Positions 1,007 to 22,101 of a stretch of 64,000 nucleotides of DNA are shown piece after piece. How positions within the stretch are numbered: position 1 is the stretch's first letter; each line of letters begins with the position of its first letter. The translations under genes were made by a program, and so were the position numbers. The notes beneath the pieces were generated by a model. The model saw only the letters and a list, made by a program, of their open reading frames with translations. It made no database searches and had not been told where the DNA came from. The stretch spans positions 1 to 64,000 of the forward strand of contig CAYORN010000004.1 in NCBI GenBank assembly GCA_964406405.1. Reading direction: 5' to 3'. The stretch comes from an uncultured Alphaproteobacteria bacterium (GTDB taxonomy: Bacteria > Electryoneota > RPQS01).

Positions 1007-1007
1007 C

Positions 1008-3104: not shown

Positions 3105-3390
3105 GGGGAATCTCCATTTTCGGTTACTGTGAGAAATATTGGCGTTGTAATTATAATTAGAGCATTCAGAACCGTTTGCCGGCTCACGGCGGAAACGGTT
3201 TATTTTTGGGAAGTATTTCACATTCTGAAGGAAGGATTTTGTTGCGTTGCCTGTCGGGTGTGTTGCCAAAATATCTGGCGCCAAGGAAAACTACGCCACG
3301 AATAATTTCGGCAAGACGGATCCCGGCGAAGCACACACAGCATGCCTCACCTTCAGAATGAACTCGTACGTGTCGCGCCTGAATGACGCC

Positions 3391-6300
3391 CTATCTGTTT
3401 GCAATCACTCGATAGAACAGTTTGTCCTGTACCGAATACGACGTGGTGATTGTGGTGTCCGGCGTCGTGGTCAGGAGACTGAATCCACTGTCGGGAGTGT
3501 TCGAGCGTTGCACATCATAACTGGTGGCGAAGCCCACCGGATTCCAATAGAGCCGTAATTGCGCACCGTCCACTCGCATGACCAGCACCGGTGGCGAAAG
3601 CGTGATCACCAACACGGTTTGCACTCCCGACCACGGCCCTGGCCCACAAGTGTTTTCACCCCTTACGCGCCAGTACCATATGCCGAGCGGCGCGCTCAGG
3701 ATTTGGTTGTAGCACAGCGCGGCGGTGTTGGCCGCAACGGGGGAGCCGAACTGCGCGTCGTCATCCCACTGGATGCGATACGTGGAGGCGTTGGCTACGG
3801 CAAGCCAGCAATACTGCTGTACGATGCCGCTCAGCACAACGGCGCCATTTCCGGGATTGCCCAGAGCGGGAGCTTGAGTGACGGTGGGGAGTAAAAGCCC
3901 CTGATCGGGCAGCGAGGCAGGTCCAGTACCACAGGTATTCCATCCGGAGACGGTGTAACTGTACGTTCCGGTTGGAGGTGTGTCCGTGCACGTCAGAATA
4001 TTCGCACCGACGGAGCACACTTGCTGGCCATTGCGATAAACGTAATATCCGTTCTCTCCCGCCACATCATTCCAGGTGATGACGATGTTGTTGCAACTGT
4101 TGTCCGTGGCGGCGACGCCGGTGACCTGCGGAGGCGGGGCAAGACGGGTGCCATTGTCGGAAAGAGATTGAAATCCATTGCCGCAGGAGTTATAGGCGTA
4201 GACGATGTAAGCATAGGTCCCCGGAGCGGGCGTATCAACACCGTTCGTTATGTTGGCATCCACGGTGTCGACAATGCCGCCGTTGCGGCAGACGTAGTAC
4301 CCGTCCTCGTTGCTGACATCATTCCAGGTAATGACGACGTTGTTGCAGTGGTCATCGGTGGCGGTGACGCCGGTGACTTGCGGCGGCAGACAGCAGCTCG
4401 GATTGGCGCACGCAGGACCAAGGTCCGTTACCTGTAGGCCATAGTTACCGGTAGCAGTCCCGTAGCCATGCACGAGAATCAAGTACTCCTCGCCAAGCCG
4501 AGAGCACCAGCCGACCTGCGAGACCAATGGGTTAAAGCAGTTGCTATTGTCGTTTTCGGCCGCGCAGACGAGAGCCGAACAGCCGCAGGTAAAGACGGAG
4601 ATTCTGCTATTGTAATTCGTCTCGTTGAGGCACAGGGTCGCCATCAGACTGTCGCCGGTTCCGATGACTTTGTGCCACACGCCAGGCGCCGTTGCCGGCG
4701 AGGAACATGCCGGAATTTCATCTAATGTGGCGCAGACAGTAGATCCAACATTCAAGTGATTTACCCCGACGACGATGGCATTCGCACACTGATCGTTGGA
4801 TGGTGGGCCTGTTGTGCCAACAACACGGATGCAGAAATCCCCTGCCGGAACAATCGCTACTGGCAGCCAGTACTGACCCGGGGAGAGGCCACCCCAGTGG
4901 AATGTAAACCGTGCATCAGCGCAAGTCGTTTGGTCAAACTCCAGCATGGTGTAATTTGTACCACAACATGATCCCGGGAAGAGACGGTTAAGAACCGAGC
5001 CATAAACAGGAGTCCCACAATACTGGACAGAGATATCCATGCACTGACTCAAGCTAAAGGTGTACCAAACTTCCGTCATTTCTATGGGAGTCTGCGCGCA
5101 ATCGCGTGTTGAGCCCAGGGTCGTGCCACATGTGGGTGTCGCCGCATTCACCGTAAGCGGAATCGCATTAGCGCAGTTGTCATTGAGGGGAGCGCAAGGC
5201 CTCCAGTTGATCTGAACCCGATAATCGCGGGGGAATGGCACACCCTCGTAGTTCTGCGGAGCGATGACGAGTGCGTACGTACCCGGGTTCAGGCAGGCCG
5301 TTCTCATGTCCATGCTCATGCATTCGGACGGATTCATGTAGGACATAGCTACCGTGCAGTTGCTTGTGTCCACGATGCTGACGAATAACGGGCACTCGGC
5401 GCCCCATGCGATCAGCTCGACGGTGTCGCGCTCCGCCAGAGTAAACAGGTACCAATCAGTATCGCGGTAAACGAAGCCGCCATACCTGTAAGTAAAGACA
5501 TGGCCGAATATGGTTTGGCCGTTCTGTACGGAGCTGAATTGGTGGGGAGTGGAATTGCAACCACCGTCAGGGTCAGTTTGCCAGAAGGTAGGATTGGAGC
5601 AATCCTCTGCGACCTCGATGACGTCCCCCGGTGTAGCCGTGACATCGCAGTTCGGGCACATTACGGCCTCGAGCACGTAATCCCCGCACGCGCCGCCGTA
5701 GCCGTCCACCACGACGTAGTACGTGTTCCCGGCATAGAGTTGAAGGCACTCGAGGTACGAGCGAAACGAAGCGGAGGCGCAGGGGCAGATCGAAGCATCG
5801 TCGCTGCAGGCGATGGGTGTCCCACTGCAGGAGTTCTGATAAACGTACAGCTTGGTGTCATAGCTCGAACGACACAAGCTGAAGCTTACCTGCTGATCGG
5901 TCGAGGGACTGTAGAAGTAAACCACGTCACTTGAGGTACTGCTCCACGAGCAGGCATAGTCGTAATCGTTGGCGTAGCTGCATGTACTGCCCGTCCCTCT
6001 AAACGGCAGAGACATGAAAATTGGGTTCGTGCAGTTGTCGCCTTGTGGCGCCTGGCGGCTGACGTTGAGGGTATAGTTGCCCGAATAAGAAGCGTATCCA
6101 TCGACCAGAATGTAATAAGTAGTACCGGCGTTCAGATAGGGACTGACCTGCGATCCCGTGCCGCAGTAATCGTCGTTGCAAGCCAGCGATGTACTGCCCG
6201 GACAAGAACCGCCATATCTAACATCAAGCATCGTGTCATAACCGCTGCCGCAGAGCGAAACATCATAAGTACCGGAGACCGTTGGTGTGAAGGTGTACAC

Positions 6301-7185
6301 TGCATCAGCCGCAGAAGGTCCACCACACGCAGGAATGTACTCGTTGCCCATGCCAGATGTGTTTTGAGAGTCTGTGAAGGGGACGGCTGAAATGGTGAGG
6401 CCCGGACAAACGTCAGGCCCGGAAGGTGGCGGCGGACCAGTGACAGTGAGTGTGTAGTTGCCGGAGTTGCTGCCATAACCGTCTACGATGATATAGTACG
6501 TTGTACCGGCATAGAGCGGCATGATGGTGATCTCGGATTGCAGACCACAGAAGTCGTCGTTGCAAAGTACAACCGTGCTGCCCGGACATCCTCCGCCATA
6601 GCGAAGTTCCAGCTCGGTATCAAAGCCGCTGCCGCAGAGCGAAACGGTGTGAGTTCCCGATACGACCGGCGTGTATTGATAAACAACGTCGGACGCGGAA
6701 CTGTTGCCGCAGCTCGGAGTGAAGTCATTCGACATCCCAGCCGTGGTTCCTGCATCGGAGTACGGAATGCCGGGAATCACAAGCGCGGGACAGTAGTCGG
6801 AGCCTTGGTCGAGCGGGTTGCCCGGCTCGCGCGGCCCGCGAATCTGTGCCAGCACTTGCAGAATCTGTCCGTCAATAACTTTCAGATTCTCACCGCGCAG
6901 TTCCATTTCCTTGCGCTGCCGAACCAGTTCGTTCAGCTCGTCTTGATGAGGATTCGGGGCCGTAAACTGCGGCGACGCGCCGGGGGCAATCGCTGAGAGC
7001 ATCTGCGAGTTTGAAGCACGTGCGTTGTTCAACACAGGAGACGGAGCGGTCGGAACGAGTTCGCTGGCGGACGTTGCCGGAATCGCTTTCGCCGGTTTAG
7101 CGGAATCAGGGGCGGGTTTTTGATCGGCGACGGACATCAAACATACGAGACCGAGAGCAGCAAACAAGAGAAAGAGCTTCTTCAC
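3391..7185 (-). CDS. large secreted multi-domain protein (1264 aa): signal peptide, coiled coil, four ~110-aa pre-peptidase C-terminal (PPC)-like repeats, Cys-rich modules, C-terminal Fn3-like domains
   Basis: repeated module '...DVVY.YTP.VSGT..VSLCGSG.DT.L..RYGG.CPGST...CNDD.CG...AGTTYYI.VDGY....GNYTL.V' x4; N-terminal MKKLFLLFAALGLVCLMSVA. Confidence 0.7.
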   Translation of the reverse strand: MKKLFLLFAALGLVCLMSVADQKPAPDSAKPAKAIPATSASELVPTAPSPVLNNARASNSQMLSAIAPGASPQFTAPNPHQDELNELVRQRKEMELRGENLKVIDGQILQVLAQIRGPREPGNPLDQGSDYCPALVIPGIPYSDAGTTAGMSNDFTPSCGNSSASDVVYQYTPVVSGTHTVSLCGSGFDTELELRYGGGCPGSTVVLCNDDFCGLQSEITIMPLYAGTTYYIIVDGYGSNSGNYTLTVTGPPPPSGPDVCPGLTISAVPFTDSQNTSGMGNEYIPACGGPSAADAVYTFTPTVSGTYDVSLCGSGYDTMLDVRYGGSCPGSTSLACNDDYCGTGSQVSPYLNAGTTYYILVDGYASYSGNYTLNVSRQAPQGDNCTNPIFMSLPFRGTGSTCSYANDYDYACSWSSTSSDVVYFYSPSTDQQVSFSLCRSSYDTKLYVYQNSCSGTPIACSDDASICPCASASFRSYLECLQLYAGNTYYVVVDGYGGACGDYVLEAVMCPNCDVTATPGDVIEVAEDCSNPTFWQTDPDGGCNSTPHQFSSVQNGQTIFGHVFTYRYGGFVYRDTDWYLFTLAERDTVELIAWGAECPLFVSIVDTSNCTVAMSYMNPSECMSMDMRTACLNPGTYALVIAPQNYEGVPFPRDYRVQINWRPCAPLNDNCANAIPLTVNAATPTCGTTLGSTRDCAQTPIEMTEVWYTFSLSQCMDISVQYCGTPVYGSVLNRLFPGSCCGTNYTMLEFDQTTCADARFTFHWGGLSPGQYWLPVAIVPAGDFCIRVVGTTGPPSNDQCANAIVVGVNHLNVGSTVCATLDEIPACSSPATAPGVWHKVIGTGDSLMATLCLNETNYNSRISVFTCGCSALVCAAENDNSNCFNPLVSQVGWCSRLGEEYLILVHGYGTATGNYGLQVTDLGPACANPSCCLPPQVTGVTATDDHCNNVVITWNDVSNEDGYYVCRNGGIVDTVDANITNGVDTPAPGTYAYIVYAYNSCGNGFQSLSDNGTRLAPPPQVTGVAATDNSCNNIVITWNDVAGENGYYVYRNGQQVCSVGANILTCTDTPPTGTYSYTVSGWNTCGTGPASLPDQGLLLPTVTQAPALGNPGNGAVVLSGIVQQYCWLAVANASTYRIQWDDDAQFGSPVAANTAALCYNQILSAPLGIWYWRVRGENTCGPGPWSGVQTVLVITLSPPVLVMRVDGAQLRLYWNPVGFATSYDVQRSNTPDSGFSLLTTTPDTTITTSYSVQDKLFYRVIANR

Positions 7186-7598
7186 GTGATACTCCGGTTA
7201 CATGATAAAATGTTCACAAGAGACGCATAAAAGAAAAGCGGGCACACGGCCCGCTTGCTACTCAACGCTGATATATCTGACCCAGCCGGGTCTGACAATG
7301 TGCTGGCCTTAAATAAACAGCCCAATTTTGGCAAAGTCAAGAACCATCATGATTCGCTTCAACTTTTCATGATTCTCTAAGACTCTATGAGCATTCAACC
7401 TAAACCTAATGATCCCCGCAAGCAACGCCTGTAAGAGAAATTGCCTCGCGAAACTCTCTCCCTTTGGACATTCGTGGCCCGCATCCGGGTAAGATGATCT
7501 CGATCAGATCACTGCAGGTCTTGCCCGCTGGCATGTTTCCTATCGGCTCGCCGATGGAGCGCAAGTTGCCACGGAAACCCGCTCCCACGCGTGCCATA

Positions 7599-7630
7599 CA
7601 CCACCACCTTCGCTATGATGGTGATGAAGG
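7599..7630 (-). repeat. conserved ~32-nt intergenic motif, copy 1 (core cttcgctatgatggtgatgaagg on plus)
   Basis: 23/23 core identity with copies at 11151..11173 and 14066..14088; lies ~420 nt upstream of minus-strand CDS 3391..7185. Confidence 0.7.
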
Positions 7631-7906
7631 GCGACAACCAGTGCTGATTGCAAGTTCTCAGCTTGACGCTGCGCGGCATCTCGATGCCCTTTGGCCTTCG
7701 TCATTTTTGCCATGAGGGTGATGAAGGTGAGCCTTCAAGTCAGATGCTCCGTAGTTGAGTCACATCTGGGTCACGCAAGTGAGTGCAAGTGCCACCAAGT
7801 GACGACAAGTGACGGCCAATGTCGTGACCTGTGTCACGGGCCTTGGGGTGCGGAAGAGCTTGATTTCGCGGGGGTGTTACTGTCTGGGCGAGGCTGACGA
7901 GAAACA

Positions 7907-7932
7907 GGCTCCCCATTGCGGAGGAGCCGGCT
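7907..7932 (-). terminator. terminator-like hairpin (minus strand), near-identical in sequence to the hairpin at 325..346
   Basis: ggctcc-ccattgcgga-ggagcc ~25 nt downstream of the stop of CDS 7952..9391; followed on minus by TGTTTCT (weak T tract). Confidence 0.45.
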
Positions 7933-7951
7933 GAACTTCCGTCATCGAGGA

Positions 7952-9391
7952 CTACTTCAAGAGCATGAGTTTCTTATTCTGCAAGAACTCTTCTGCATCC
8001 AGCCGCACGAAGTAAATTCCCGATGCCAGCCTGCTCCCGTCAAACGTCAGGCGATGAGTTCCGGCTTCAACAAAGCCATCTCTCAGCACGGCCACTTCAC
8101 GCCCCAGCAGATCAAACACGCGCAGGGAGACATGCCCCGCTCTGGGAAGATCGTAAGCAATCATCGTCGAAGCGTTGAACGGATTCGGGTAGTTCTGGTA
8201 GAGCGCGTAGTCCTCGATTAAGGCAGGAGTGGGCATCAACGCCGTCGTTTCGACTGTGACGCAGGCGCACCCTTCATTGTCCGTCAGGTTGGTAACCCGT
8301 AGGATCCACGTCGAGTCGGAGACCCAGAACGATTGCTGGTGGAACGCTCCCACCGGAGGACAACCATCGTCTCCGCAGAAACTCGCGCAATCCAGGCTGA
8401 CCGTGAACAACGGCTCCCCGCCTTCATTGCTGTAGAAAAACACCTCCCGGGTTCCGCCCGGCGTCAGATGCAGACACGTGGATATTTCTGGCGTAATGAC
8501 GATTTCCGCCAACTCGCAGGGCGCTTCGCTGAGGTAGTGATCATACAATGTGTCCAGACTTTCATCAGCCGAACGGGTTCGACGCGGCAACGCCGGAATT
8601 GCCGCCGCTCCCTGCTCTGTCTCCGGACCGGAATACGACCAGCGGGCTGAATCCAACAGCAGGCATTTGGCGGCAATGATGCTGTCGAGTAGAACTCTGT
8701 GGTGCGCGTACGGCTGATGCTCAAGCCACGAGCCGGATCCCGAGAACCCTGCGGCGACCGCGGCAGCACGCAAGGCAGCGCGCAGCGAATCCACCACCTG
8801 TCGCTCGCCCCAAGCCATCAAGCCCACATCGCCGTATCTCACTCGCCCACTGTAGCCCTGTGGATGCGGGCTGCTGGAATGGATAATCCCGCCGAACGTG
8901 TCGGTGACCGAATGAATCGTGTCATTGGGAGCCAGCGACGACCAACAGGACACAACCTGAACCAGAACCACAGAGTCCGGCTTGGCCATCAGCCGGTAAG
9001 GCTGATAGTCGGTGAGTCCGGTTCCGCCGCCTTCGCTACCCTGCGGAGCAAAACCGGAGTGGTTATTGCCGTTGATCAGAATGCCGCCGCCGGCAATCAG
9101 CTCGCCGCCTTCCAGCTCGGTTCGGATGCCGTGGGCGATGACAATGAACGTATCACCGCTATGCGTCGTGCACCAGATGCTGTTGATGTCTCCGCCGACC
9201 GCCAGCGTGTCGCCCGGTCGAGCGATCTCATGATAGTAGCCCTCCATGAACGAAGCGATGCCGCTGTTCGACTCTTCTGATATCCAGACTACCTTGCGGG
9301 CGTGACCCGGGTTGGCTGAAATCATCATGATCAGTACGAGTGCTGTTATCAATCCCGCACATGTGAGACGTCTCATGTTGGTCTCCTTCAC
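7952..9391 (-). CDS. secreted protein with T9SS (Por) C-terminal sorting domain; function unknown
   Basis: C-terminus ...[33 protein letters not shown]...[22 protein letters not shown]; N-terminal signal peptide. Confidence 0.7.
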
Positions 9392-9576
9392 AGTAAAAGG
9401 CAGCTGGCATAGGAGTTGAAACCACGCGCCTCAGCTTCCGGTGCAGTGCACGCGCAAAAAAGGCGAGGCTTCCTGCCCCTGCGGGAAACCTCGTTGCAAA
9501 GTATGGACCTTTAGTGAAACTGCCCCGGTCACACCGTGCACAGGCGCGGCTGGAGTGTACCCCAAAAACTGGACAG

Positions 9577-9741
9577 TCAGAAGTGTAGCGTTAGATGGGG
9601 TGTTTGGGGTTGTTTTAGTTTAAGTTCGAAGGCGACCGGGGATAGATATCCGAGAGCCGAGTGCAAGCGTTTCCGGTTGTAAACTTGGTCAATGAAGTAG
9701 GGCAGCCGCGCCTGTGCCTCTTCGAATGTTTTGTATGCCTT
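9577..9741 (-). pseudogene. remnant of an IS3-family transposase (C-terminal end of the DDE/rve domain only)
   Basis: translation ...KTFEEAQARLPYFIDQVYNRKRLHSALGYLSPVAFE matches the conserved C-terminus of IS3-family OrfB (..YNxxRxHSxLGYxSPxxFE); no upstream remainder of the transposase. Confidence 0.6.
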
Positions 9742-9743
9742 CG

Positions 9744-9775
9744 GCCTCGTTTTCTCGCTATGATGGTGATGAAGG
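9744..9775 (-). repeat. conserved ~32-nt intergenic motif, copy 2 (core tctcgctatgatggtgatgaagg); abuts the IS3 remnant
   Basis: 22/23 core identity with other copies; ~355 nt upstream of CDS 7952..9391. Confidence 0.65.
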
Positions 9776-9982
9776 TAGCTACTCATGCGAATGGTTCGTA
9801 TGCCATGCATGCCACTATGCGGCCACATATTCAATCCCCGGAATCGTTTTATTCTCTTGCACAGCGATGCGGTGCTTGCTGGTGCAGGTGCTGTTGTCGC
9901 CCTCTTGCTCAATGACGCTGGCGGAAAGCACTCGGCACTAAACTATATCTCTCAAACCAGGCGCCAAGGGAACAAGTGCCAA

Positions 9983-11116
9983 CTACGGAGTTCTGGAACA
10001 ACGGAATCCGATGAAGTTGTTGCGATTCGCCGGATTGTTGTCGATGCGAGAGGCGCACCGGCTGTTGGAACTATTATTGCTCCACGCGCCACCCCGTATA
10101 ACACGGGTGGAGCCGCGAGGATTATCAATCCATGCGCTGCCGTCAGTAGGAGCGCCATTATAGCTTTCGTGCCAGTCATCTTCGCACCATTCGTCAACAT
10201 TCCCGCACATGTCATAGCAACCCGCCGGACTGATGCCATATGGGTAGGTGCCGACCGGTGAAGTATCAACGTAGCCATCGGCTATGTTGTTGTAGATATT
10301 GGCATTGGTCGGAACCCACGTGTCTCCCCACGGCCATTGGCGATTGTCTGCATTTCCTTTCGCCGCGCGTTCCCGTTCCGCTTCGGTCGGCAGACGCTTC
10401 CCCGCCCAAGTGGCATAGGCACGGGCATCATCCCAAGACACCATCACCACCGGATAGTTCGCATATGCAGGATTCGTGAAGTAATTGGGAGGAATGCCCT
10501 CGAAACCGGGATCGTCAGGATAAGCCCGTGCTGTCGCATCACAGAACAGCTTATACTGGGCGTTGGTCACCTCGTACTTGTCAATATAGAACGCCGGAAC
10601 GTTCACCGTGTGGATGGGTAGCCCATAGGGCCACCAGTAATCAGCTCCCATGTCGTACGGCCCCGCCGGAACCAGAACCATGCCTGCGAAATCTGCTGTG
10701 GAGAACGACCAAACAGGTCCCGATGTCGAATGATCGTGGTTATCATGTGCCACGATTTGCCAGTAGTAGGTCGTGCTGTCTGCCAACGTTTCCAGACTGT
10801 AGGTAGTTTCAGATTGAACCGGACTTACCAATGGCGGCGTGCTTGATGTGCCAAAGTAAACATCGTAGGTCAACAGGTCACTATCGGGATCACTGCAGCT
10901 CCACGTGAGATTCACGTCGATAGATTGGTCCGTTGCCTGATTCGCAGGTACAGGATTTGACGGCAGATTCGGCGCGCTGTTGTCTGTTGGTTCCGCTGTG
11001 TCATCACTCTTGTCGCAACCATTGAGAAGCACCAGCAGGGTGATGCTTACGGCGATGCAAAACTTTCTTGGGCAACTCATGATGTGATCCCTATAATTGT
11101 GGATTGTCGAGTTCAC
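9983..11116 (-). CDS. formylglycine-generating enzyme (FGE)-sulfatase family (SUMF1/EgtB/PvdO-like) lipoprotein with N-terminal Fn3-like domain
   Basis: MVLVPAGPYDMGAD...YEVTNAQYKLFCD...YPVVMVSWDDARAYATWAGKRLPTEAERERAAKG...RVIRGGAWSNN...FRCSRTP; lipobox LLNGC. Confidence 0.8.
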   Translation of the reverse strand: MNSTIHNYRDHIMSCPRKFCIAVSITLLVLLNGCDKSDDTAEPTDNSAPNLPSNPVPANQATDQSIDVNLTWSCSDPDSDLLTYDVYFGTSSTPPLVSPVQSETTYSLETLADSTTYYWQIVAHDNHDHSTSGPVWSFSTADFAGMVLVPAGPYDMGADYWWPYGLPIHTVNVPAFYIDKYEVTNAQYKLFCDATARAYPDDPGFEGIPPNYFTNPAYANYPVVMVSWDDARAYATWAGKRLPTEAERERAAKGNADNRQWPWGDTWVPTNANIYNNIADGYVDTSPVGTYPYGISPAGCYDMCGNVDEWCEDDWHESYNGAPTDGSAWIDNPRGSTRVIRGGAWSNNSSNSRCASRIDNNPANRNNFIGFRCSRTP

Positions 11117-11141
11117 AGAGATGATTGTGCCTGCGCCACCT

Positions 11142-11173
11142 CGTCGTCATCTTCGCTATGATGGTGATGAAGG
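11142..11173 (-). repeat. conserved ~32-nt intergenic motif, copy 3; ends only ~30 nt upstream of the start codon of CDS 9983..11116
   Basis: cgtcgtcatcttcgctatgatggtgatgaagg; identical core. Confidence 0.7.
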
Positions 11174-11401
11174 CGGCTTACGCATGCAAAGAACCACCAG
11201 AGGTGCTCTTCGCGACGCAAGGCCAACTTTGCCGAAGATATTGATGGGAAACAGGCATGGCCTGTTAGCGGCGCTCTTTCCGATGCATCCTCCGGCGCTT
11301 CCAACAGTTCAAGACTTGCGAGCCTTGCTTGCGCTTGTGTAGAACGGAACGGTTGTGCTCTGACAGCGCAAGAGCGAATTGGGTCAAGAATTGAGGGAGA
11401 C

Positions 11402-12121
11402 TTACTTAAACACAATGATGCACACGGGAATGGCAAACATAAGCCCTAATGCGAGAATCGGCAACATGGCTCCGAGGCTTCTTACAAACGCAACTTGTAC
11501 ATCTCCATCTGCTGCGAGTGATCGTGAATACAACCATTTGGCTATGTACCATGATGAACAAGCCCACAGGATCGCGGCGACAACATCAATGATCAAATGT
11601 TGCTTCACAAACAACGTCGAGATGGAGATCAGTACTGCCATTACAGCAATTGCGATCTCAAGGGATTTTCCTAAGCCTTGTCGCCAACACATGAAACACA
11701 TGAGCCAACTGGCAATAACATGCATGCTGGGAAGCTTGTTCGCACTCGGGCTGAAATCATGTGCATAAATGACTGCCAGCACTCGTTCTGATAGTGTCGT
11801 GCCAAGAATCGGATGCGGAAGAGAAACAGGAAGTAGGAAGTAACATGCAAACGCTGTCATATTGGCTATCAGGAATGCAACCGTACCCAAGGCAAAGCGG
11901 GACCAGTTCTTGGTCACGATCAGCGGCACAACAGGCATCACATAAGCCAACATGTAGATCCACACAAACGCTGGGACCAGCGGTATCTGCTTGTCAAGAG
12001 CGGTTGCAAAATCTCGTGCAGGAAATCCGGAAGCTAGATTACCTACGACTAAGAAGCACAATGTCCAGACGACATATGTGATCAACCACGTGGAAGAAAA
12101 GAACACTCTATGAGAGGTCAT
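11402..12121 (-). CDS. integral membrane protein, PAP2-superfamily-like (phosphatidic acid phosphatase type 2 / inositol-phosphorylceramide synthase-like)
   Basis: six or more hydrophobic segments; PSMH...HLIIDVV resembles PAP2 motifs PSGH / SRxxxxxHxxxD; family assignment tentative. Confidence 0.45.
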   Translation of the reverse strand: MTSHRVFFSSTWLITYVVWTLCFLVVGNLASGFPARDFATALDKQIPLVPAFVWIYMLAYVMPVVPLIVTKNWSRFALGTVAFLIANMTAFACYFLLPVSLPHPILGTTLSERVLAVIYAHDFSPSANKLPSMHVIASWLMCFMCWRQGLGKSLEIAIAVMAVLISISTLFVKQHLIIDVVAAILWACSSWYIAKWLYSRSLAADGDVQVAFVRSLGAMLPILALGLMFAIPVCIIVFK

Positions 12122-12330
12122 CGGTGCTCATGAAATGGTGTGTGTGCGAACGTCAGATTGACAACGTCACATGACTACATGGTATCGCGCGCCCCAAATT
12201 CTGCTTAATGACCTGGTGTTAACGTCCTGAATAGGGGGCAGCAGGCGCGGCTGCTTCACACGTGGGTGCCATTGTCATTCTTTTGCGCCACGACGATGCG
12301 CAAAGCGCGAGCCGGGATTCCCGCATAATT

Positions 12331-12370
12331 CGCAGATGCTTTCATCTTCGATATGACGGCAATGACAAGC
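12331..12370 (-). repeat. degenerate copy of the ~32-nt motif (tttcatcttcgatatgacggcaatgacaagc), ~210 nt upstream of CDS 11402..12121
   Basis: shares ttcatcttcg.tatga.gg..atga..ag with the other copies; lower identity. Confidence 0.4.
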
Positions 12371-12395
12371 GCACTTCATCGTCAGAAACAGTGCT

Positions 12396-12830
12396 TCAGA
12401 AGCTGCTCCACCCCCTCCGGCGTAACCGTATCGTTCGCCATGTCGAACACAGGCCATACAGCTTTATGTCGAGAATGGGCGTGCCGTGAATAGCGTCGAG
12501 TCCTTGTACTTGAAGTGTCCTCTCCATAACTGACAGTAGGTGAACTGCTGTTATTCCGATAGGATTGAGGCGGTGCTTGGCACGCTGCGCAAAGATTCCT
12601 GGTAATGGCATGTCATCACGGTCCCGCGGACGACAAATGATATGCTTACCTGAATCAAACTCCGCTTCGTGCATCCAATAGACTACCAGAATGTGGGACA
12701 AAGCCTCAAGACCACGTAACCCTGAAGCTAACTCGGGGGCAATTTCGATCAGGGCTACAACGCTACCCCAGCCGTTGTCCCTGCTTTCTGCTACTGCCGA
12801 CTTCACTTTGCCGATGGGTCTCATTTCCAT
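12396..12830 (-). CDS. tsaA: TsaA/YaeB-family SAM-dependent tRNA methyltransferase (tRNA-Thr t6A37 m6 methyltransferase-like)
   Basis: MEMRPIGKVKSAVAESRDNGWGSVVALIEI..EALSHILVVYWMH..PRDRDDMP..GIFAQRAKHRLNPIGITAVHLLSV...LDIKLY matches the UPF0066/TsaA fold. Confidence 0.65.
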   Translation of the reverse strand: MEMRPIGKVKSAVAESRDNGWGSVVALIEIAPELASGLRGLEALSHILVVYWMHEAEFDSGKHIICRPRDRDDMPLPGIFAQRAKHRLNPIGITAVHLLSVMERTLQVQGLDAIHGTPILDIKLYGLCSTWRTIRLRRRGWSSF

Positions 12831-12910
12831 GGCAACTCACTTGCCCCCAAGGAGATGAGTCACGGTCATCCGTCTTGGTCCCAACGCAACGACATTCACC
12901 ACGTACGCAA

Positions 12911-13771
12911 TTATTGACCGAGAATGATTGGTAATCCGTTCTTGCCAGATCCAATAATTACAGTCTTTGCGTTTTGAGACTTTGCAATATCCATTGTAGC
13001 CTCAATACCCTTCCAGGCAAGTAATTTGTCGCTAATGCTTTCAGATATGATCTTCTGGAAGTCCTTGATCCCTTGGGCTTCGATTCGTTTTCGCTCAGCT
13101 TCTTGCTTTTCTTTTTGCAGAACAAACTCCATTTTCTGGGCTTCTTGTTCAGCCGTTGCCTTAGCATTAATTGCCTCAGATACGCTTGCAGGCAACTTCA
13201 AACTGCGCATCGGAGTTTCTTCAATCGTGATACCACGAGGACCGACAACCGTCGCCAAATCAGTTTTCAACTTACCGGCGAGAATGGTACGGTCAGCAGT
13301 ATAAAGAGCTTTTGCCTCTGATGTCGTCGTGATATCACGTGTTACTGAACGAAAATTGGGTTCTAGGAGAACCAATGGATCACCGTTCTGTACGGTTTGC
13401 ATCATGACTGGCCACGCTTCTTTTGTGACATGGAAGAAGCAAGATACTTCAAGTTCACACGACAGACCTTCTTTGGATGGCGTGATCATTGTTTCTTTGA
13501 TCTCTTGGGTGCGTGTCGGCTTATAGATTACATCAGCAAACGGGTTCACGAAATTGATTCCGGGATCAAGTGCAATTGGCTGGATCACACCGAACAAGTC
13601 AACAACACCACAACTGCCATTAGGAACGGTACGCACCATACTGAAAAGTGCGAAGATTGCTGCGAGAGCAATAATAATACCTTTCCCCCAACTGGGAACT
13701 GCATTGGACTCCCATTTTACGAAAAACGAAACGACAAATAGTGCAAGAAGCGACATCGTTAGATAGATCAT
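12911..13771 (-). CDS. SPFH/band-7 (prohibitin/HflC-like) membrane protein
   Basis: N-terminal TM segment, SPFH core, C-terminal coiled coil (AEQEAQKMEFVLQKEKQEAERKRIEAQGI); no NfeD partner gene adjacent. Confidence 0.7.
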   Translation of the reverse strand: MIYLTMSLLALFVVSFFVKWESNAVPSWGKGIIIALAAIFALFSMVRTVPNGSCGVVDLFGVIQPIALDPGINFVNPFADVIYKPTRTQEIKETMITPSKEGLSCELEVSCFFHVTKEAWPVMMQTVQNGDPLVLLEPNFRSVTRDITTTSEAKALYTADRTILAGKLKTDLATVVGPRGITIEETPMRSLKLPASVSEAINAKATAEQEAQKMEFVLQKEKQEAERKRIEAQGIKDFQKIISESISDKLLAWKGIEATMDIAKSQNAKTVIIGSGKNGLPIILGQ

Positions 13772-13813
13772 CGTTGTTACCTTTCTAAGGTTGTTTGGGT
13801 TTGCTGTTTTGTG

Positions 13814-13837
13814 TGGCAGAGGGGATTCGAACTCCCG
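13814..13837 (-). other. orphan tRNA 3'-end-like fragment (T-arm plus acceptor; minus strand reads CGGGAGTTCGAATCCCCTCTGCCA) with no full tRNA body
   Basis: GTTCGAATCC T-loop flanked by complementary arms and ending ...CTGCCA; upstream 5' half absent; ~40 nt upstream of the SPFH start. Confidence 0.5.
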
Positions 13838-13963
13838 AATTCACCACATATTGTACGTCGTCAGCCAAATGGCACACTTTCCTGGGTGACATAATTGACC
13901 AATAGAAGAGCACCTTAGGGACAGAGCCCGCTGTCTCGAATACTCATAATCCAGCGTCGTGGC

Positions 13964-14170
13964 ACCATCACCGCGTCCGCTATCATCTTCGCTTGATGGT
14001 GATGAAGGCAGCAGCCGAGGACAGGTTGAGCAGTGGTTACGCACCGCTTCCGGCGACGCCGTTATCTTCGCTATGATGGTGATGAAGGAACGCAGACGGA
14101 GACGGACTGACCAGTGCTGACGCTCCGATTCCGGCTATCGCCGTCATCTTCGCCATGATCGTGATGAAGG
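13964..14170 (-). repeat. mini-array of three copies of the ~32-nt motif (cores 13987..14008, 14066..14088, 14147..14170) spaced 79-81 bp, separated by unrelated 48-49-nt spacers
   Basis: cgccgttatcttcgctatgatggtgatgaagg / cgccgtcatcttcgccatgatcgtgatgaagg / ...tatcatcttcgcttgatggtgatgaagg; same orientation as the solitary copies; 210-400 nt upstream of CDS 12911..13771. Confidence 0.7.
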
Positions 14171-14499
14171 TGGTGCCCGGAAATCATATTACCAACCAGA
14201 GTACTCTGTTTCCGCTTGCTGAATCGACGGGCAATAGATAGGCGGCAGCGACAGGCCACTCTCCGAAGTTGTTTCGTATCAAGATAGTAAAACGTCGATC
14301 CGGAATCAACGGTTGCTCCGGCCGAATTTTGACGCAAGGCGGCGACAAAACGCGAGCGAAAAACTCGCGTCCGAGTGCCAGTGCACGAAATGCACGCGTA
14401 ACATAAACAAACCATTAGAGACTGCCGTATACTGTGCTGAAGCACCAGTGTGCTGTTCTCGTCCTGTTCGCTAATGACACTCCGCATCTCCGTCGCCTT

Positions 14500-14543
14500 C
14501 GACCAAACAAAAACCCTTGTTAAACAATAGTTTAACAAGGGTT
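14500..14543 (-). terminator. Rho-independent terminator (minus strand): perfect 14-bp stem AACCCTTGTTAAAC/GTTTAACAAGGGTT, 4-nt loop, then TTTGTTTGG
   Basis: perfect inverted repeat at 14512..14543; T-rich tract on minus strand (A-rich 14500..14511 on plus). Confidence 0.6.
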
Positions 14544-14547
14544 AAAA

Positions 14548-14574
14548 GGTGGAGACGGCGGGAATCGGACCCGC
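14548..14574 (-). other. second tRNA 3'-end-like fragment (minus strand GCGGGTCCGATTCCCGCCGTCTCCACC) lacking a 5' half
   Basis: T-arm-like stem GCGGG/CCCGC around TCCGATT, then acceptor-like CGTCTCC-A-CC; resembles the 3' region of tRNA-Ser(GGA) (..CCCCGTCTCTCCGCCA). Confidence 0.35.
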
Positions 14575-14647
14575 GGCACTCTTCTCTCCAAAGAGCATTA
14601 AATCAAACAATCACAGCACTGTAGCACATCGCGGAGAACACACTCAA

Positions 14648-15880
14648 CTAGTGGACTGACTCATCTACAGTGATGGGTAGAGGCTGCGCAGTTTGATGCG
14701 GGCGTCTTTGGTCGTAAACTGCCAGTTGATTTTCGCAATGCGACCGTTGCGTGCCGTTTCCCAAGCGGTGACTTCGCGACGCAACCGCTCGCTGCTGGCG
14801 AGACGGCGCTTGAGACACTGTTTCGTCAGGATGCCCAACTCGATCTCCGCGATGTTCAGCCAACTGCCATGCTTGGGCGTGTAGTGGATTTCCAGGCGAT
14901 CCGTCAGTCGTTTCGCTTCCGCCGGCGGGAAGGTCGCATAGAAGGACGCGGGGGGGTGCGTGTTCAGATTGTCCATGATCAGGACGATCCGTTCGGCATC
15001 GCGATACATCGTGTTCATCAGCTCTCGCATCGTCAGCGCCCAGCCCTGCTTCGTGCGCTGTTCAGTCACCTGCACATAACGCCTTCCCGTCAGCGGATCG
15101 CTGAACAGGAAGAGATTGGCCACCCCTTTGCGCACGTACTCGGCATCGTAGCGCGCCGCCTGTCCCGGCACCATCGGGAGCGGATGACGGATCTCGCCTA
15201 ACAGTTGCTTGCTGGTCTCATCCATACAGATCAGCGGACGCTGGGGATCATACGGCCGCTGGTAAACATCCAAAACGTCTTCCATGTGGAAGACATAGTC
15301 CGGATCCGCCTTGGTGGGGATCACCCACATCTCTTGAAGCCACGGCTTCAACGCATTTTTTTTAGCGTGCGCCGCACCGTTTCGCGCGCGACGTGGGGGC
15401 AGTATTCGAGGACGACCATCTGCTGAGCCAGCAGCCGCACCGACCACTGCGCGTGGCCTTCCGGCGGCTCGCTGCAGGCCAAAGCAATCAGATGCGCCTC
15501 GGCATTGCCATCCAACACGCGTTCATACTGACGTGTGGTCGGCCGGCGTTCCAGAGCCGCCTCCCAGCCGTCTTCGACGAAGCGTTGGCGCACCCGCTCA
15601 ATCGTGGAGATCGCCACGCCCAGCGCGTCGTGGATCTCGGGATCGCTGCGCGAGAGGCCATCAGGACTGGTATCCGCCTGCAACAGAATGCGGGCATGGG
15701 CCTGCTTGCGAGCGGATGACTTCCCTTTGCGCGTCAGCTCAAGTAACTGTTTGCGCTCCGCTTGCGAAAGCACCACACGGTACTTCTTGCGCATGACTTC
15801 CTCCGGTTATGCTGTCAGCAATCTCCCGGAGTATAACATGGCTCAAAAAACAACTCGAATCAAGTAGGTCGCTCCACTAG
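14648..15880 (-). mobile_element. IS630-family insertion sequence (~1.2 kb) with imperfect terminal inverted repeats CTAGTGGAC / CTAGTGGAG
   Basis: two overlapping transposase ORFs bracketed by inverted CTAGTGGA at 14648..14656 and 15873..15880; exact ends and TA duplication not resolved. Confidence 0.6.
14665..15794 (-). CDS. IS630-family DDE transposase made by programmed -1 frameshift (orfA 15348..15794 HTH; orfB 14665..15447 DDE) at an A8 slippery run (15355..15363)
   Basis: orfA: HTH (AISTIERVRQRFVEDGW). orfB: DDE core ...LIMDNLNTHPP...HYTPKHGSWLNIAEIELGI. 100-nt overlap contains CTAAAAAAAATGC, and the -1 product joins ..TLKK to NALKPWLQEMW. Confidence 0.8.
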
Positions 15881-15925
15881 GCGCAGGCAAAAGCATTTTA
15901 TGCGTTTGGCGTACTAAATCGCTAT

Positions 15926-16537
15926 TCAAGCCGTCGTCGGGTACGTGGCGCTTGCGCGTTGAAACAGCAATGCAGATGAGACAAACAGCGCGACGAAGAA
16001 CGCATTTAAGATGAAGACACCCACTACACCAGGGGGTTCTTCCACGGTGATAACCGGCTTCCAGATAATCAGCGCAATCACGGGGACCAACGCCTGAGCG
16101 AGCGCCGTCGCGAACAACGCGCGCGCCATTCTACGCGGCTTCAAGCGCGCGATGGCGGCACCGATGAATCCGACGACGAGCACACCGAGATACAGCACGT
16201 TGGCGGGGTGGTCCTCGGATCCAATGATCCCGACGGCAAGATTTAACCAGATGAGGATCAATCCTGCCGCCACTGCAATGCCGACGGCGACCCGGTACGC
16301 GATACTGTCCGACATTCTTGTTATCAACACATACGCGAGACCAGTGCCGAACAGGAGGACGCCCATGACAATGAAATCACCCAGGCTCCAGGCCACTTCA
16401 TCGGTGAACTGCATCGCCAACAAGGGTATCAGCAATATGAACGCTGTCGCCAGCGCAATGCGGATAATGTTTTTGTTTTGCACAATGATAAATGTCATGT
16501 TCGCTCTAATAATTCCCGCGGATGTTTCGACGAACAT
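15926..16537 (-). CDS. hypothetical polytopic membrane protein
   Basis: 203-aa ORF with 5-6 hydrophobic helices; no recognisable motif. Confidence 0.45.
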   Translation of the reverse strand: MFVETSAGIIRANMTFIIVQNKNIIRIALATAFILLIPLLAMQFTDEVAWSLGDFIVMGVLLFGTGLAYVLITRMSDSIAYRVAVGIAVAAGLILIWLNLAVGIIGSEDHPANVLYLGVLVVGFIGAAIARLKPRRMARALFATALAQALVPVIALIIWKPVITVEEPPGVVGVFILNAFFVALFVSSALLFQRASATYPTTA

Positions 16538-16628
16538 CCAGAGAGCGCAACCGAATAATCCTCTTTCTTCCTTCTGCCGCGCCTTCGGCGCGACCGTCCT
16601 GCCTCCTTTCGGAAGTGGAAGTTACATT

Positions 16629-16721
16629 TGGCGGAGAGACGGGGATTCGAACCCCGGATACCGGTTGTGCCAGTATGCACGCCTTCCAAGCGTGTGCCTT
16701 CAACCACTCGGCCATCTCTCC
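16629..16721 (-). tRNA. tRNA-Ser(GGA), long variable arm, CCA encoded; integration target of the upstream island
   Basis: GGAGAGATGGCCGAGTGGTTGAAGGCACACGCTTGGAAGGCGTG...CGGGGTTCGAATCCCCGTCTCTCCGCCA; anticodon loop TTGGAAG; 7-bp acceptor pairs. Confidence 0.9.
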
Positions 16722-16900
16722 CAAAGAGAAGTAAGAAAATCCGAAATCCGAAATCCGAGTCAGAAAGAAGTCAAAATCAAGCGCGACAGCCTTCTATCAC
16801 GTAATTTCCGTGCGTTCCACAAAGGTGCCTTGCTTGTCGGTCCTGTACTTTCAAATTCTTCTGATTTGGATTTCGGATTTTCTTCCTTGCTTACTTTTTC

Positions 16901-16991
16901 TGGCGGTGAGGGAGGGATTCGAACCCCCGGTACCCACGAGGAGTACAACGGCTTTCGAGGCCGCCGCATTCGACCACTCTGCCACCTCACC
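16901..16991 (-). tRNA. tRNA-Ser(CGA), long variable arm, CCA encoded
   Basis: GGTGAGGTGGCAGAGTGGTCGAATGCGGCGGCCTCGAAAGCCG...GGGGGTTCGAATCCCTCCCTCACCGCCA; anticodon loop CTCGAAA. Confidence 0.85.
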
Positions 16992-17137
16992 GGGGCAAAC
17001 TTTCTACACGAACCCGGGAACTGCAAGACGGAAAAGCGCCGCCGAAGCAGGAACGGGTAGGCCCTCAGGATTTCCAATATAATGCCTCCAAGCCGGGAGC
17101 GCAAGTCCGCCGCCGCGAGGAATCAACTCACGGGCGT

Positions 17138-17566
17138 CTACTCGTGGGTCTCTACTTCGGGGGAAGTTTCTTTTTTCTCTTCGCCGAGGAGTTTGCCAAA
17201 CAGCATGGCCAGCAGACCCAAAATCACGCCATAGATCGCGGCGCCCAAAACGATGCCAATCGCCATCCACGGACGAATATCCGTTCCCTCGGGGACCTTC
17301 GCCATTTTCTCAACCACGTCAGGATTATTGGCGATAAAACTGTCCCAGAAAATGAACTGAAGAGCGCCGCCAATCAAGGTCCAAATGACCGCCGTCAAGA
17401 AACCGTGCAGGAACAGCTTGTGCTTCACTTGGTAACCGAGCAGCACGGCTGCGATCACCACGAGGCCAATTGAGATCCACATGCTGCTGGGCAACCAACC
17501 GAGCAGCGATGCCACCGCCAGCAAAACTCCCAACGCCACCAGCGAGAAAATCATCTTCCAGTTCAT
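17138..17566 (-). CDS. hypothetical small membrane protein (4 TM)
   Basis: hydrophobic 142-aa ORF with acidic C-terminal tail. Confidence 0.45.
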   Translation of the reverse strand: MNWKMIFSLVALGVLLAVASLLGWLPSSMWISIGLVVIAAVLLGYQVKHKLFLHGFLTAVIWTLIGGALQFIFWDSFIANNPDVVEKMAKVPEGTDIRPWMAIGIVLGAAIYGVILGLLAMLFGKLLGEEKKETSPEVETHE

Positions 17567-17633
17567 ACATCCTCCGGAAGGAAGTTGAGAAACCTGAAGC
17601 GCGTATTGTAAGAGCCGAGCAGGAAGGCTCCGC

Positions 17634-17915
17634 TTAAACTTCGTTTAGGACGAAGCCATCAATCTCTAGCTCCTCCCACACGTCGAAGGGATCGTCCTTG
17701 ACCGCTTCGCGCGCGAGCGGAGCGAGCCGCTGCCAGGCTTCCGGGCTCTCGAAGATCGCCAGACCGACGAGGCGACTAGAGTGCTCGTCTTTCAGCGTGT
17801 GGATTCGGATGCAGCTCGGCTTGCCACGCACGGCGTTACCGAAGCGGTGCATCGAATCAATCAGCGCCGCTTCGTGTTCCGGCTTGGGGTGGTGGATGGA
17901 AAGGATGACGTACAT
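17634..17915 (-). CDS. ABM-domain (antibiotic biosynthesis monooxygenase/Dabb-like) small protein
   Basis: MYVILSIHHPKPEHEAALIDSMHRFGNAVRGKPSCIRIHTLKDEHSSRLVGLAIFESPEAW; start set at internal Met of the 148-aa ORF. Confidence 0.55.
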   Translation of the reverse strand: MYVILSIHHPKPEHEAALIDSMHRFGNAVRGKPSCIRIHTLKDEHSSRLVGLAIFESPEAWQRLAPLAREAVKDDPFDVWEELEIDGFVLNEV

Positions 17916-17989
17916 ATAGAAAACTTGAATAGAAACTTGAAACTTGAAACAGGAGATCCGGCTTCCAAATTTGCCATTTCCTACTTGCT

Positions 17990-19054: not shown

Positions 19055-19103
19055 GCGCTTTAACGGGAGGGTTGCTTAACCCTCCCCTACAAGCCATCAA
19101 TCT

Positions 19104-19913: not shown

Positions 19914-19955
19914 AGAATCTCTCTAATGGTGTGTTTACGAACGGTCAGGGGCCGC

Positions 19956-21623: not shown

Positions 21624-22101
21624 TTTTCTTTTGTTGACGGAGTGTCGAGAAGAACCCGGAGAGAATCTCGCCGCACGGTTCGAGCAGCACGTTCGGCAGC
21701 ACTGTGCAGGTGTGATTCAAGCGCGTGTCGCTCAAGAGAGAGTAGAGCGTGTCCACGGCACCGGCCTTGAGATCAGGAGCGCCATAGACGACCAAAGGAA
21801 TGCGGGCAAGGACGATGGCTCCGGCGCACATCGCACACGGTTCCAGCGTCACGTACAGTGCACAATCTAAAAGCCTGCGGCTTCCCAAGGTGGCGGCGGC
21901 GGCCGTGATGGCAATCATTTCCGCGTGTGCCGTGGGATCTTGCAGGCTTTCCGTCTGATTGTGGCCGCGTCCGATCACCAAGCCATTGTGTACGACCACG
22001 CACCCAATCGGCACTTCGGCTTTGGCCTCGGCCAAGCGCGCCTCCTTCAAGGCCTCCCGCATCCATCGCTCGTGGTCCGGTTGCCCGAAGGTGTCAAACA
22101 T
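21613..22101 (-). CDS. tadA: tRNA-specific adenosine(34) deaminase TadA
   Basis: ..[27 protein letters not shown]....[11 protein letters not shown]....[15 protein letters not shown] (H-A-E and PC-x-x-C zinc motifs); alternative start at 22158. Confidence 0.85.

Follow-up and report, generated by a model that had tools for sequence, protein, structure and literature searches.

What is a short repeat doing when it recurs in one orientation between the genes of a single island? In the stretch of DNA analysed here (64,000 nucleotides; the window), the preliminary description counted seven copies of such a repeat, here called M1, and took them for the operator or 5' leader of a T9SS regulon, also listing, fairly, a small mobile repeat. 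Our tentative answer, which we hold as a serious possibility rather than as probable, is that M1 is the boundary repeat, or junction site, of a one-directional, integron-like gene-cassette array, set in a variable island of an uncultured, KSB1-like sediment bacterium. With a profile HMM trained on 63 copies we obtained eight significant matches in the 64 kb (E 2e-11 to 3e-5). The seven described copies are real, but an eighth (7695-7729) had been overlooked, and the last begins at 14148, not 14147. All eight matches lie on the + strand and span 7604-14172 (6.6 kb); the other 57 kb holds none, the next best match having E = 1.1, so that both the single orientation and the restriction to one island are borne out. 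This clustering, eight copies in 6.6 kb against none in 57 kb, counts for a cassette array. The 23-mer CTTCGCTATGATGGTGATGAAGG occurs with 0 mismatches at 7608, 11151 and 14066 and with 2 mismatches at 9753 and 14148, and no match is expected in the window by chance. The array and its edges, with the copies entered on the minus strand, are as follows.

3391-7185, minus strand: gene that follows the final M1 in gene sense; 1264 aa, without a family match
7604-7631, minus strand: M1 copy 1, CATCACCATCATAGC on the minus (gene-sense) strand with 0 mismatches, E 1.6e-8; left arm atypical (CACCACC)
7678-7691: linker hairpin GGCATCTCGATGCC between M1 copies 1 and 2
7695-7729, minus strand: M1 copy 2, E 9.6e-7, the copy overlooked before
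7730-9753, minus strand: cassette 1, T9SS-cargo gene 7952-9391, terminator 7928-7907
about 9557-9771: IS3 transposase 3' remnant and right end, in cassette 1
9754-9778, minus strand: M1 copy 3, a hybrid M1::IS3
9779-11141, minus strand: cassette 2, fn3/FGE-sulfatase gene 9983-11080/11116
11142-11175, minus strand: M1 copy 4, the consensus copy, E 2e-11
11176-12336, minus strand: cassette 3, PAP2 membrane phosphatase gene 11402-12121, G+C 0.50
12337-12366, minus strand: M1 copy 5, decayed (degenerate), E 2.9e-5
12367-13976, minus strand: cassette 4, TrmO-like gene 12396-12830 and Band7/prohibitin gene 12911-13771, G+C 0.48
13813-13845: tRNA-like fragment in the 5' region of cassette 4
13853-13880: block M2 in the 5' region of cassette 4
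13977-14011 (1-nt deletion), 14057-14088 and 14139-14172, minus strand: last three M1 copies
14548-14633, minus strand: degenerate tRNA-Ser(UGA)-like gene, terminator 14512-14543

In gene sense the tRNA-Ser(UGA)-like gene shortly precedes the first M1 and marks the array edge; at the other end, the gene at 3391-7185 is set apart from M1 by 350 nt that contain no ORF and by an intrinsic terminator (7256-7236). Copies 1 and 2 make up a 97-nt unit, and hairpin GGCATCTCGATGCC recurs in the 97-100-nt units of related loci. The three copies within 13977-14172 enclose gene-free intervals, or 'null cassettes'; their spacers, previously called unique, are an 81-nt tandem repeat (2.3 copies, 79% identity). 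The cassettes range in G+C from 0.48 to 0.58 (flanks 0.57-0.58) and are unrelated in function, both of which count for a cassette array. The placement of the copies between minus-strand genes stands, except that the copy at 9754-9778 is fused to an IS3-family transposase remnant, and what had been described as a position upstream of a gene is for every copy equally a position downstream of the preceding one.

M1 itself is a repeat of 26-36 bases with an invariant 15-nt core, CATCACCATCATAGC in gene sense, which sits in a 14-nt asymmetric centre with imperfect inverted arms, CTGCCGCCATC and GATGACAGCAG, on either side. Among 76 distinct copies each of the 15 contiguous core positions is >89-99% conserved; the arms are less conserved than the core, and the flanks are variable. 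The core stays constant across lineages that differ in G+C content, as a cassette array would have it. M1 also forms multimers, whose periods are 44-49, about 81 and about 97 nt; the 44-49-nt tandem periods are not divisible by three, so M1 is non-coding. The hairpin TCATC-N14-GATGA proposed earlier can form, but has no covariation support. A fold of about 36-41 nt with one bulged A, shorter than any attC, is better on the + (bottom) strand (z about -3.7 for a single unit) than on the gene-sense strand, where three pairs are G-U. The functional form of M1 could be the + strand, acting as a small antisense RNA, as a hairpin in single-stranded DNA (CGTCGTCATC / loop TTCGCTAT / GATGGTGATG) or as the beginning of short ORFs (MMVMK...), and ATGATGGTGATGAAGG within the core is indeed followed by short ORFs. 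We consider such a role very improbable: the arms pair at 72.5% in register against 67-68% when shifted by 3 nt, the tandem periods do not preserve a reading frame, and the peptides show no relationship to one another, vary arbitrarily in length and run over the 3' ends of minus-strand genes. Over the M1 copies Rfam 15 gave no match at E up to 5, and in the window only tRNAs passed its gathering threshold.

Beyond the window, M1 is present in 24 related loci (about 100 copies) from sediment metagenomes, a KSB1 MAG and one other MAG, where it again lies between co-directional genes. In the oriented loci 102/102 copies are on the shared strand, with one orientation per locus, and a genome scan found a single matching contig per MAG. 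These loci are partly redundant samples of few populations and hence represent few independent events, which counts against a cassette array.

Compared across these loci, the stretches between cores behave as discrete cassettes. A 563-nt unit, C4, lies between cores in three of them with differing neighbours and order: C4|C5|C14 in L019, C4|other|C18 in L033 and C5|X|Y|C4|... in L034. On both sides its homology between loci ends at or inside the invariant core, and, with the window as reference, one core has a match to L033 on its left and to L031 on its right. The FGE-sulfatase cassette of the window shares 75% DNA identity with a cassette of L015, the homology ending in M1, and past M1 the neighbours differ. 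At the copy 9754-9778 the 5' half of M1 in gene sense (CCTTCATCACCATCATAGCGA) runs into coding sequence from the interior of an IS3 transposase; the two meet at AGCGAG, and L033 has the identical junction. A fusion within AGCGA places the break inside the centre of the repeat, in keeping with exchange of cassettes. Homologs of the C4 gene with 70-84% identity reside in ordinary cusCBA-like operons that have no M1, as expected if the C4 gene was captured. Judged from these alignments, M1 is where close relatives differ in whole gene units, in the order of these units and in their breakpoints, and since related strains differ in the order of units that are joined at M1, the repeat most likely marks cassette exchange. 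Several observations weigh against the array of cassettes that we propose. L029 is a mosaic with its break inside a cassette, one junction lies about 25 nt outside the core, and general homologous recombination between 26-50-nt repeats predicts identical junctions. No recombinase gene was found among the scanned window ORFs (1-59 kb) or in any related locus, and the 15-nt invariant block exceeds the overlap of 2-8 nt that known recombinases need.

If exchange rather than regulation or mere repetition explains these patterns, cores in direct orientation would recombine with one another, so that the intervening DNA, in most cases a single gene together with its own 5' and 3' UTRs, could be excised, inserted, reordered or duplicated. 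Duplication of bare sites would generate the 'null' units of 44-49, 81 and 97 nt. The catalyst would most likely be a site-specific recombinase encoded elsewhere in the genome, and the array is probably read in one direction, as in integrons, which would explain why all cassettes face one way.

The same junctions could arise passively. M1 and its linkers may be an intergenic mosaic repeat peculiar to this lineage and of the same type as REP/BIME or neisserial NIME sequences, selfish or structural, that spreads by slippage and gene conversion and serves as a substrate for RecA-dependent recombination, with no dedicated exchange function. We think this unlikely, though several points speak for it: the build is modular, with M1 set between linker units of 33, about 55-67 and about 82 nt; the linkers carry small perfect hairpins (GCCGCTTCGCGGC and GGCATCTCGATGCC); the + strand has the hairpin potential given above; and the L029 mosaic shows homologous recombination to be clearly active in these populations. 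An IS3-family element or remnant also adjoins M1 in the window, L033 and L042, which recalls IS1397, an element that targets BIMEs. NIMEs (units bounded by dRS3) and BIME/REP clusters likewise place short repeats between mosaic linkers of 30-100 nt, are intergenic and lie beside genes for surface or secreted proteins; a role in promoting recombination is ascribed to them, mobile elements are believed to target them, and IS3-family association is known for BIMEs. However, dRS3 and REP sequences form inverted repeats or alternate in orientation, whereas M1 is strictly direct, co-oriented with genes and free of inverted pairs; M1 also bounds whole genes, and it is clustered in one island (one contig per MAG), not dispersed. 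An identical core across lineages of different G+C is unusual for selfish repeats, and the junctions lie in 15-17 nt of identity, a short substrate for exchange that depends on RecA. A RAYT-associated REP/BIME in particular does not fit the DNA scanned, given 0 copies in the 57 kb of the window outside the island, 102/102 copies in one orientation and no RAYT, IS200-like or Y1 transposase gene seen.

A third possibility keeps the regulatory function proposed at the outset. M1 could be a cis-regulatory element of the downstream gene (an operator, an activator site, or an ops/JUMPstart-style leader that loads an anti-termination factor), and the cassette-like shuffling a by-product of homologous recombination between copies. 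The nearest gene-downstream ORF is co-directional in 64/64 cases, the start codon lies 35-190 nt past many copies, and the window and L015, whose orthologous cassettes have diverged, keep a start spacing of 68 and 67 nt with an alignable 5' UTR. Gene co-orientation and this conserved 67-68-nt spacing fit a 5' regulatory element and exchange of cassettes equally well. A second conserved block, M2, often lies between M1 and the ribosome-binding site; the intrinsic terminators at 7256-7236 and 9479-9465, placed between M1 and the start that follows, would agree with a leader that acts by anti-termination; and in L048 an M1-like degenerate pair precedes a YHS-like gene in a non-array operon. Against this, a non-array paralog of the FGE-sulfatase gene lacks M1, many copies lie 12-19 nt past the preceding stop codon, a consensus promoter scan showed no enrichment, the multimers vary in period, and the array has no linked gene for a regulator or NusG paralog. 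The ops/JUMPstart elements of RfaH-type NusG paralogs resemble M1 as short, orientation-specific elements in the 5' leader of accessory or surface genes at variable distance from the start, but apart from TAGCG the sequences are unrelated, and M1 multimerises and is restricted to the array. We regard a regulatory role as doubtful. The promoter or operator of a regulon fits the sequence poorly: the invariant 15 positions are contiguous, neither two-block (-35/-10) nor palindromic, the distance from M1 to the start varies from about -30 to 1220 nt (median 167), and four T9SS-cargo genes elsewhere in the window have no M1. The T9SS-regulon reading was right to describe a conserved, non-coding sense element between minus-strand genes.

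Returning to exchange of cassettes, a bolder and rather improbable extension is that M1 is the attachment site of a new cassette-capture system in KSB1-like (FCB-group) bacteria, integron-like in its logic but with a short site, a 15-nt core and a recombinase both unrelated to IntI and unlinked from it, which would shuffle T9SS-secreted and other accessory genes in a dedicated chromosomal array. To our knowledge, integrons are the sole well-understood platform for stockpiling and reshuffling single promoter-less genes. If an uncultured phylum had a second, unrelated one, cassette-based genome plasticity would have evolved more than once; the core would then be a sequence tag for mobile accessory genes in metagenomes, many of them here T9SS cargo, and a handle toward the enzyme that recognises M1. 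Were M1 a regulatory leader or a mosaic repeat instead, it would still mark a hypervariable island and recombination hot spot in KSB1-like genomes.

How does M1 compare with other systems built on short repeats? CRISPR arrays share with it direct repeats of 26-32 nt and, in one place, a regular 80-nt spacing, but we rejected this candidate, as the preliminary description had: the interiors of the 81-nt and 44-49-nt units are mutually homologous, diverged copies, the other intervals are genes of 1.2-2 kb, and no cas domains occur among the scanned window ORFs. A MITE was rejected because the flanks are unrelated on both sides, a TIR/TSD pattern is absent and conservation is limited to a block of 15-26 nt. 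Islands that accrete at tRNA genes through att repeats (tycheposon-like) resemble the array in that direct repeats bound cargo near tRNA-Ser genes or tRNA-like fragments; they differ in that M1 has no integrase and its units are single genes or even 33-nt linkers. A tRNA- or tmRNA-derived att repeat was rejected, as M1 has no T-arm or acceptor sequence and the fragments at 13813-13845 and 14548-14633 are separate features. Set by eye in a Xer/dif register (CACCTTCATCA-CCATCA-TAGCGAAGATG), M1 is symmetric at 7/11 positions, outer and not inner, whereas dif is a single 28-bp site per chromosome (11-6-11) with palindromic inner arms and M1 is multi-copy; we know of no likeness to known dif consensus sequences.

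Integrons offer a close parallel, though with clear differences. The R''/R' core sites (RYYYAAC ... GTTRRRY) of a canonical attC are absent from M1, and this candidate was rejected; a regex search for such pairs through 134 kb of oriented loci gave 7 candidates in sense and 7 on the control strand, none <=30 nt from an M1 core. An attC measures 57-141 nt and is conserved at its outer ends, whereas M1 measures 26-36 nt and is conserved at its centre, and bare M1 sites, unlike attC, multimerise in tandem. IntI, attI and Pc were not seen with M1, nor were intI/Phage_integrase or other recombinase domains found in window ORFs (1-59 kb) or related-locus neighbours; an integrase is likewise not adjacent in CALINs, clusters of attC without integrase. 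Like sedentary chromosomal integrons with near-identical attC (e.g. Vibrio VCRs) and CALINs, the M1 array is one-directional and consists mostly of single-gene units. Both systems combine unrelated functions and mixed G+C with a conserved repeat that bounds the units, and both have IS elements lodged in the array. Like attC, M1 may also fold as an imperfect palindrome, better on the strand opposite the coding one. In both systems, finally, cassette content and order vary between close relatives.

The statement with the best support is descriptive: M1, a 26-36-base repeat with an invariant 15-nt core, serves as the boundary repeat in a hypervariable, one-directional array of gene cassettes, where entire gene units are moved by recombination at M1. 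The motif is real, as the 23-mer of the preliminary description occurs five times at no more than two mismatches where chance predicts none. A shorter degenerate core has seven occurrences in the window, and a profile HMM of 63 distinct copies (window and related loci) yields exactly eight significant copies in the 64 kb, all on the + strand, with the next best match at E = 1.1. The copies listed earlier stand; the list itself was one short, having overlooked 7695-7729:

7604-7631, + strand, M1 copy
7695-7729, + strand, M1 copy
9754-9778, + strand, M1 copy
11142-11175, + strand, M1 copy
12337-12366, + strand, decayed M1 copy
13977-14011, + strand, M1 copy with a 1-nt deletion
14057-14088, + strand, M1 copy
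14139-14172, + strand, M1 copy

The unique spacers ascribed to the three right-hand copies proved instead to be an 81-nt tandem repeat (2.3 copies, 79% identity), and 7604-7729 is a single 97-nt unit.

Between these copies, every gene lies on the minus strand (gene sense). The genes of the array, and the one that follows it, are:

3391-7185, minus strand, gene whose 1264-aa product matches no family, after the last M1 in gene sense
7952-9391, minus strand, T9SS-cargo protein gene, between M1 copies
9983-11080, minus strand, fn3/FGE-sulfatase protein gene, between M1 copies
11402-12121, minus strand, PAP2 phosphatase gene, between M1 copies
12396-12830, minus strand, TrmO-like protein gene, between M1 copies and followed by the Band7 gene
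12911-13771, minus strand, Band7 protein gene, after the TrmO-like gene

The four window cassettes, that is, the DNA between neighbouring cores, have G+C contents of 0.58, 0.54, 0.50 and 0.48, with 0.57-0.58 in both flanks. A donor search with the Band7 cassette found a nearest non-self homolog that is 64% identical, over a partial match only. Four further T9SS-cargo genes of the window have no M1 copy.

Next to the right edge of the array come, in order, a degenerate tRNA-Ser(UGA)-like gene and its terminator, an IS630 element and two true tRNA-Ser genes. The tRNA-like gene (14548-14633, minus strand) was detected by ARAGORN only at a lowered threshold, where all other matches were noise; it is followed by a perfect 14-bp hairpin terminator (14512-14543), and a weak partial permuted-tmRNA match (Rfam) falls at 14485-14574 in the same region. 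The IS630-family insertion sequence (14651-15877; HTH_32 and DDE_3 ORFs in two frames, TA duplication at its flanks) sits between this gene and one for a 203-aa membrane protein. Upstream of the Band7 gene is another tRNA-like 3' fragment (13813-13845, minus strand). Since the two true tRNA-Ser genes lie within 2 kb, the region may serve as a hot spot for integration. On the left, about 350 nt downstream of the first two M1 copies (7236-7603) hold no ORF. A strong intrinsic terminator (7256-7236) closes this stretch, only 50 nt short of where the 1264-aa gene starts; the stretch might represent a decayed cassette, an attenuator or a small RNA. Farther left, 422-3284 carries a chimeric fibre or adhesin-like gene (Peptidase_S74 chaperone domain, Bdello_MAT_N) and a gene weakly similar to the CPR-type pilus protein PamT. 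At the left array edge, GC skew changes sign from positive (1-8 kb) to negative (8000-22000), with genes on the minus strand on both sides.

A scan of a genome collection (exact pattern, one genome per species) gave 12 matches, 10 of them chance coding matches of the AMIVMK type; the two real ones are L007, a MAG of visibly lower G+C that bears the label Alphaproteobacteria, and L010, a MAG of candidate division KSB1. Metagenomes contributed 27 loci, most from one set of sediment samples, and the viral contigs, phages and plasmids searched contained no M1 match. In the first 24 kb of the window together with 23 related loci, which are partly redundant samples of a few populations, 102 copies are significant, and all 102 lie on one strand once each locus is turned to put its first copy on the + strand. 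The nearest long ORF is on the strand opposite to M1 in 64 of 64 cases on the gene-downstream side and in 74 of 85 on the upstream side. M1 follows the preceding stop codon by 12 to >1000 nt, only 12-19 nt for many T9SS genes, and precedes the next start codon by about -30 to 1220 nt (median 167). Strict co-orientation supports the reading preferred in the preliminary description, M1 as a 5' regulatory or leader element, as do a spacing of 67-68 nt shared by two orthologous cassettes, a companion block, M2, and the terminators that follow some copies; we consider this reading rather unlikely. M2 reads GGAAAGTGTGCCATTTGGCTGACGACGTAC in gene sense, with a TAnnnT-like hexamer at its end. It is found repeatedly in unrelated genes, each time between M1 and the ribosome-binding site, and is a candidate for a portable promoter or 5'-UTR module. 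This conserved block occurs at:

window 13853-13880, minus strand
L010 29-56, reoriented copy with M1 on the + strand
L023 about 770-810, reoriented copy with M1 on the + strand
L035 about 1215-1245, reoriented copy with M1 on the + strand
L038 about 5600-5630, reoriented copy with M1 on the + strand
L042 about 1640-1665

As sigma-70, sigma-54, ECF or Bacteroidetes-type promoters, both M1 and M2 were rejected, their hexamers being inconsistent and the consensus scan at background; with its contiguous conserved block, M1 does not look like a promoter.

For a cassette map, every locus was cut at its M1 cores and the segments clustered. One segment, C4 (563 nt), contains a YHS-like gene of 138 aa preceded by about 85 nt and followed by about 65 nt. 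It has the same length in three loci, where its neighbours and their order differ:

L019: C4, C5, C14
L033: C4, another segment, C18
L034: C5, X, Y, C4, further segments

In the three-way C4 alignment, homology begins and ends at the invariant core. At one core, locus L033 is the same as the window on the left side (the IS3 remnant) and the same as L031 on the right, and the window's FGE-sulfatase cassette is 75% identical to L015 as far as M1, beyond which the neighbours differ. Decayed M1 copies are present where cassettes look fused. Not all junctions lie in the core, since L034 and L019/L029 part about 25 nt outside it; L029 is moreover mosaic, with a breakpoint within one cassette, and ordinary homologous recombination therefore also acts at these loci. 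M1 might itself be a REP/NIME-like mosaic repeat that recombines through general homology, a possibility we hold to be doubtful.

Relatives of cassette genes also occur elsewhere. C4 protein homologs (70-84% identity) follow cusCBA-like efflux operons without a canonical M1, and one such locus, L048, has a degenerate M1-like pair at that position: within 7440-7543, the RND pump gene has its stop codon inside the M1-like sequence CACCACCATGCATAGC, and a second degenerate copy follows. Homologs of the FGE-sulfatase protein (62-67% identity) likewise lie outside arrays. In L047 (4860-5560), the YHS-like gene has an IS3 transposase 3' remnant on one side and an IS3 right-end-like sequence on the other, and a cassette protein of L038 (6572-7342, reoriented, gene on the minus strand) has a GIY-YIG-like motif, GVYSF...VYYCG, recognised by eye only.

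The M1 unit reads, in gene sense, (CACCTT or GCCGC)-CATCACCATCATAGC-GAAGATGAC(A/G)GCAG, with 89-99% conservation per position in the 15-nt core (76 distinct copies) and 50-85% in the arms. Bare units also form multimers, whose period is 44-49 nt, about 81 nt (window) or 97-100 nt; the linkers in them show conservation of their own and contain small perfect hairpins. The tandem periods, among them those of 44-49 nt, are not multiples of 3, so the repeat is non-coding; a coding repeat was rejected also because the candidate peptides (+ strand sORFs starting MMVMK, a TM-plus-Arg-rich tail, minus-strand HHHH) are unrelated. A 13-bp hairpin, CCT CGTCGTCATC / TTCGCTAT / GATGGTGATG A AGG, with three G-U pairs is possible on the + strand, at a z-score of about -3.7 for the single unit; the folding of longer units is not unusual. 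Pairing is found in 72.5% of cells (63 copies) and still in 67-68% with the 3' arm slid by 3 nt, because both arms carry a 3-nt periodicity, and covariation evidence is absent because the right arm never varies in these copies.

Several known identities were rejected. M1 is not a CRISPR (spacers not unique, cas genes absent) or a canonical attC (no R''/R' pair, RYYYAAC...GTTRRRY, near any copy), and it was also rejected as an intrinsic terminator (no U-tract in M1, and other arrays without terminators) and as a structured RNA (no Rfam match, negative covariation test). Nor is it a MITE or a tmRNA/tRNA att site; M1 is not tRNA-like, and ARAGORN with the IS removed gave nothing new. A phage or plasmid origin was rejected, given the lack of matches in the viral contigs, phages and plasmids searched.

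For the mechanism, we tentatively favour site-specific exchange at M1, which would be carried out by a recombinase encoded elsewhere, since (i) the core is invariant across lineages while the arms drift, (ii) it lies between imperfect inverted arms, (iii) one copy is a hybrid that breaks off in its centre and continues as foreign IS3 DNA, and (iv) M1 is confined to arrays. Pfam and NCBIfam scans found no recombinase domain in the window ORFs scanned (about 1-59 kb) and no M1-linked recombinase gene among the neighbours of homologs. Copy 9754-9778 adjoins the C-terminal remnant of an IS3-family transposase, whose rve_2 similarity begins exactly at the motif; the intact IS3 of L042, compared as a possible source of M1 in IS3 coding sequence, belongs to a different subgroup. 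A perfect 15-nt inverted repeat (9538-9552 / 9703-9717) has one arm in the transposase remnant and the other just beyond the IS3 right end.

Literature searches found nothing relevant to M1, and we know of no described repeat with its sequence or anatomy. That the array is a truly new cassette-capture system seems to us improbable. Its logic comes closest to that of chromosomal integrons and CALINs, and the anatomy of M1 to that of NIME/BIME mosaics.
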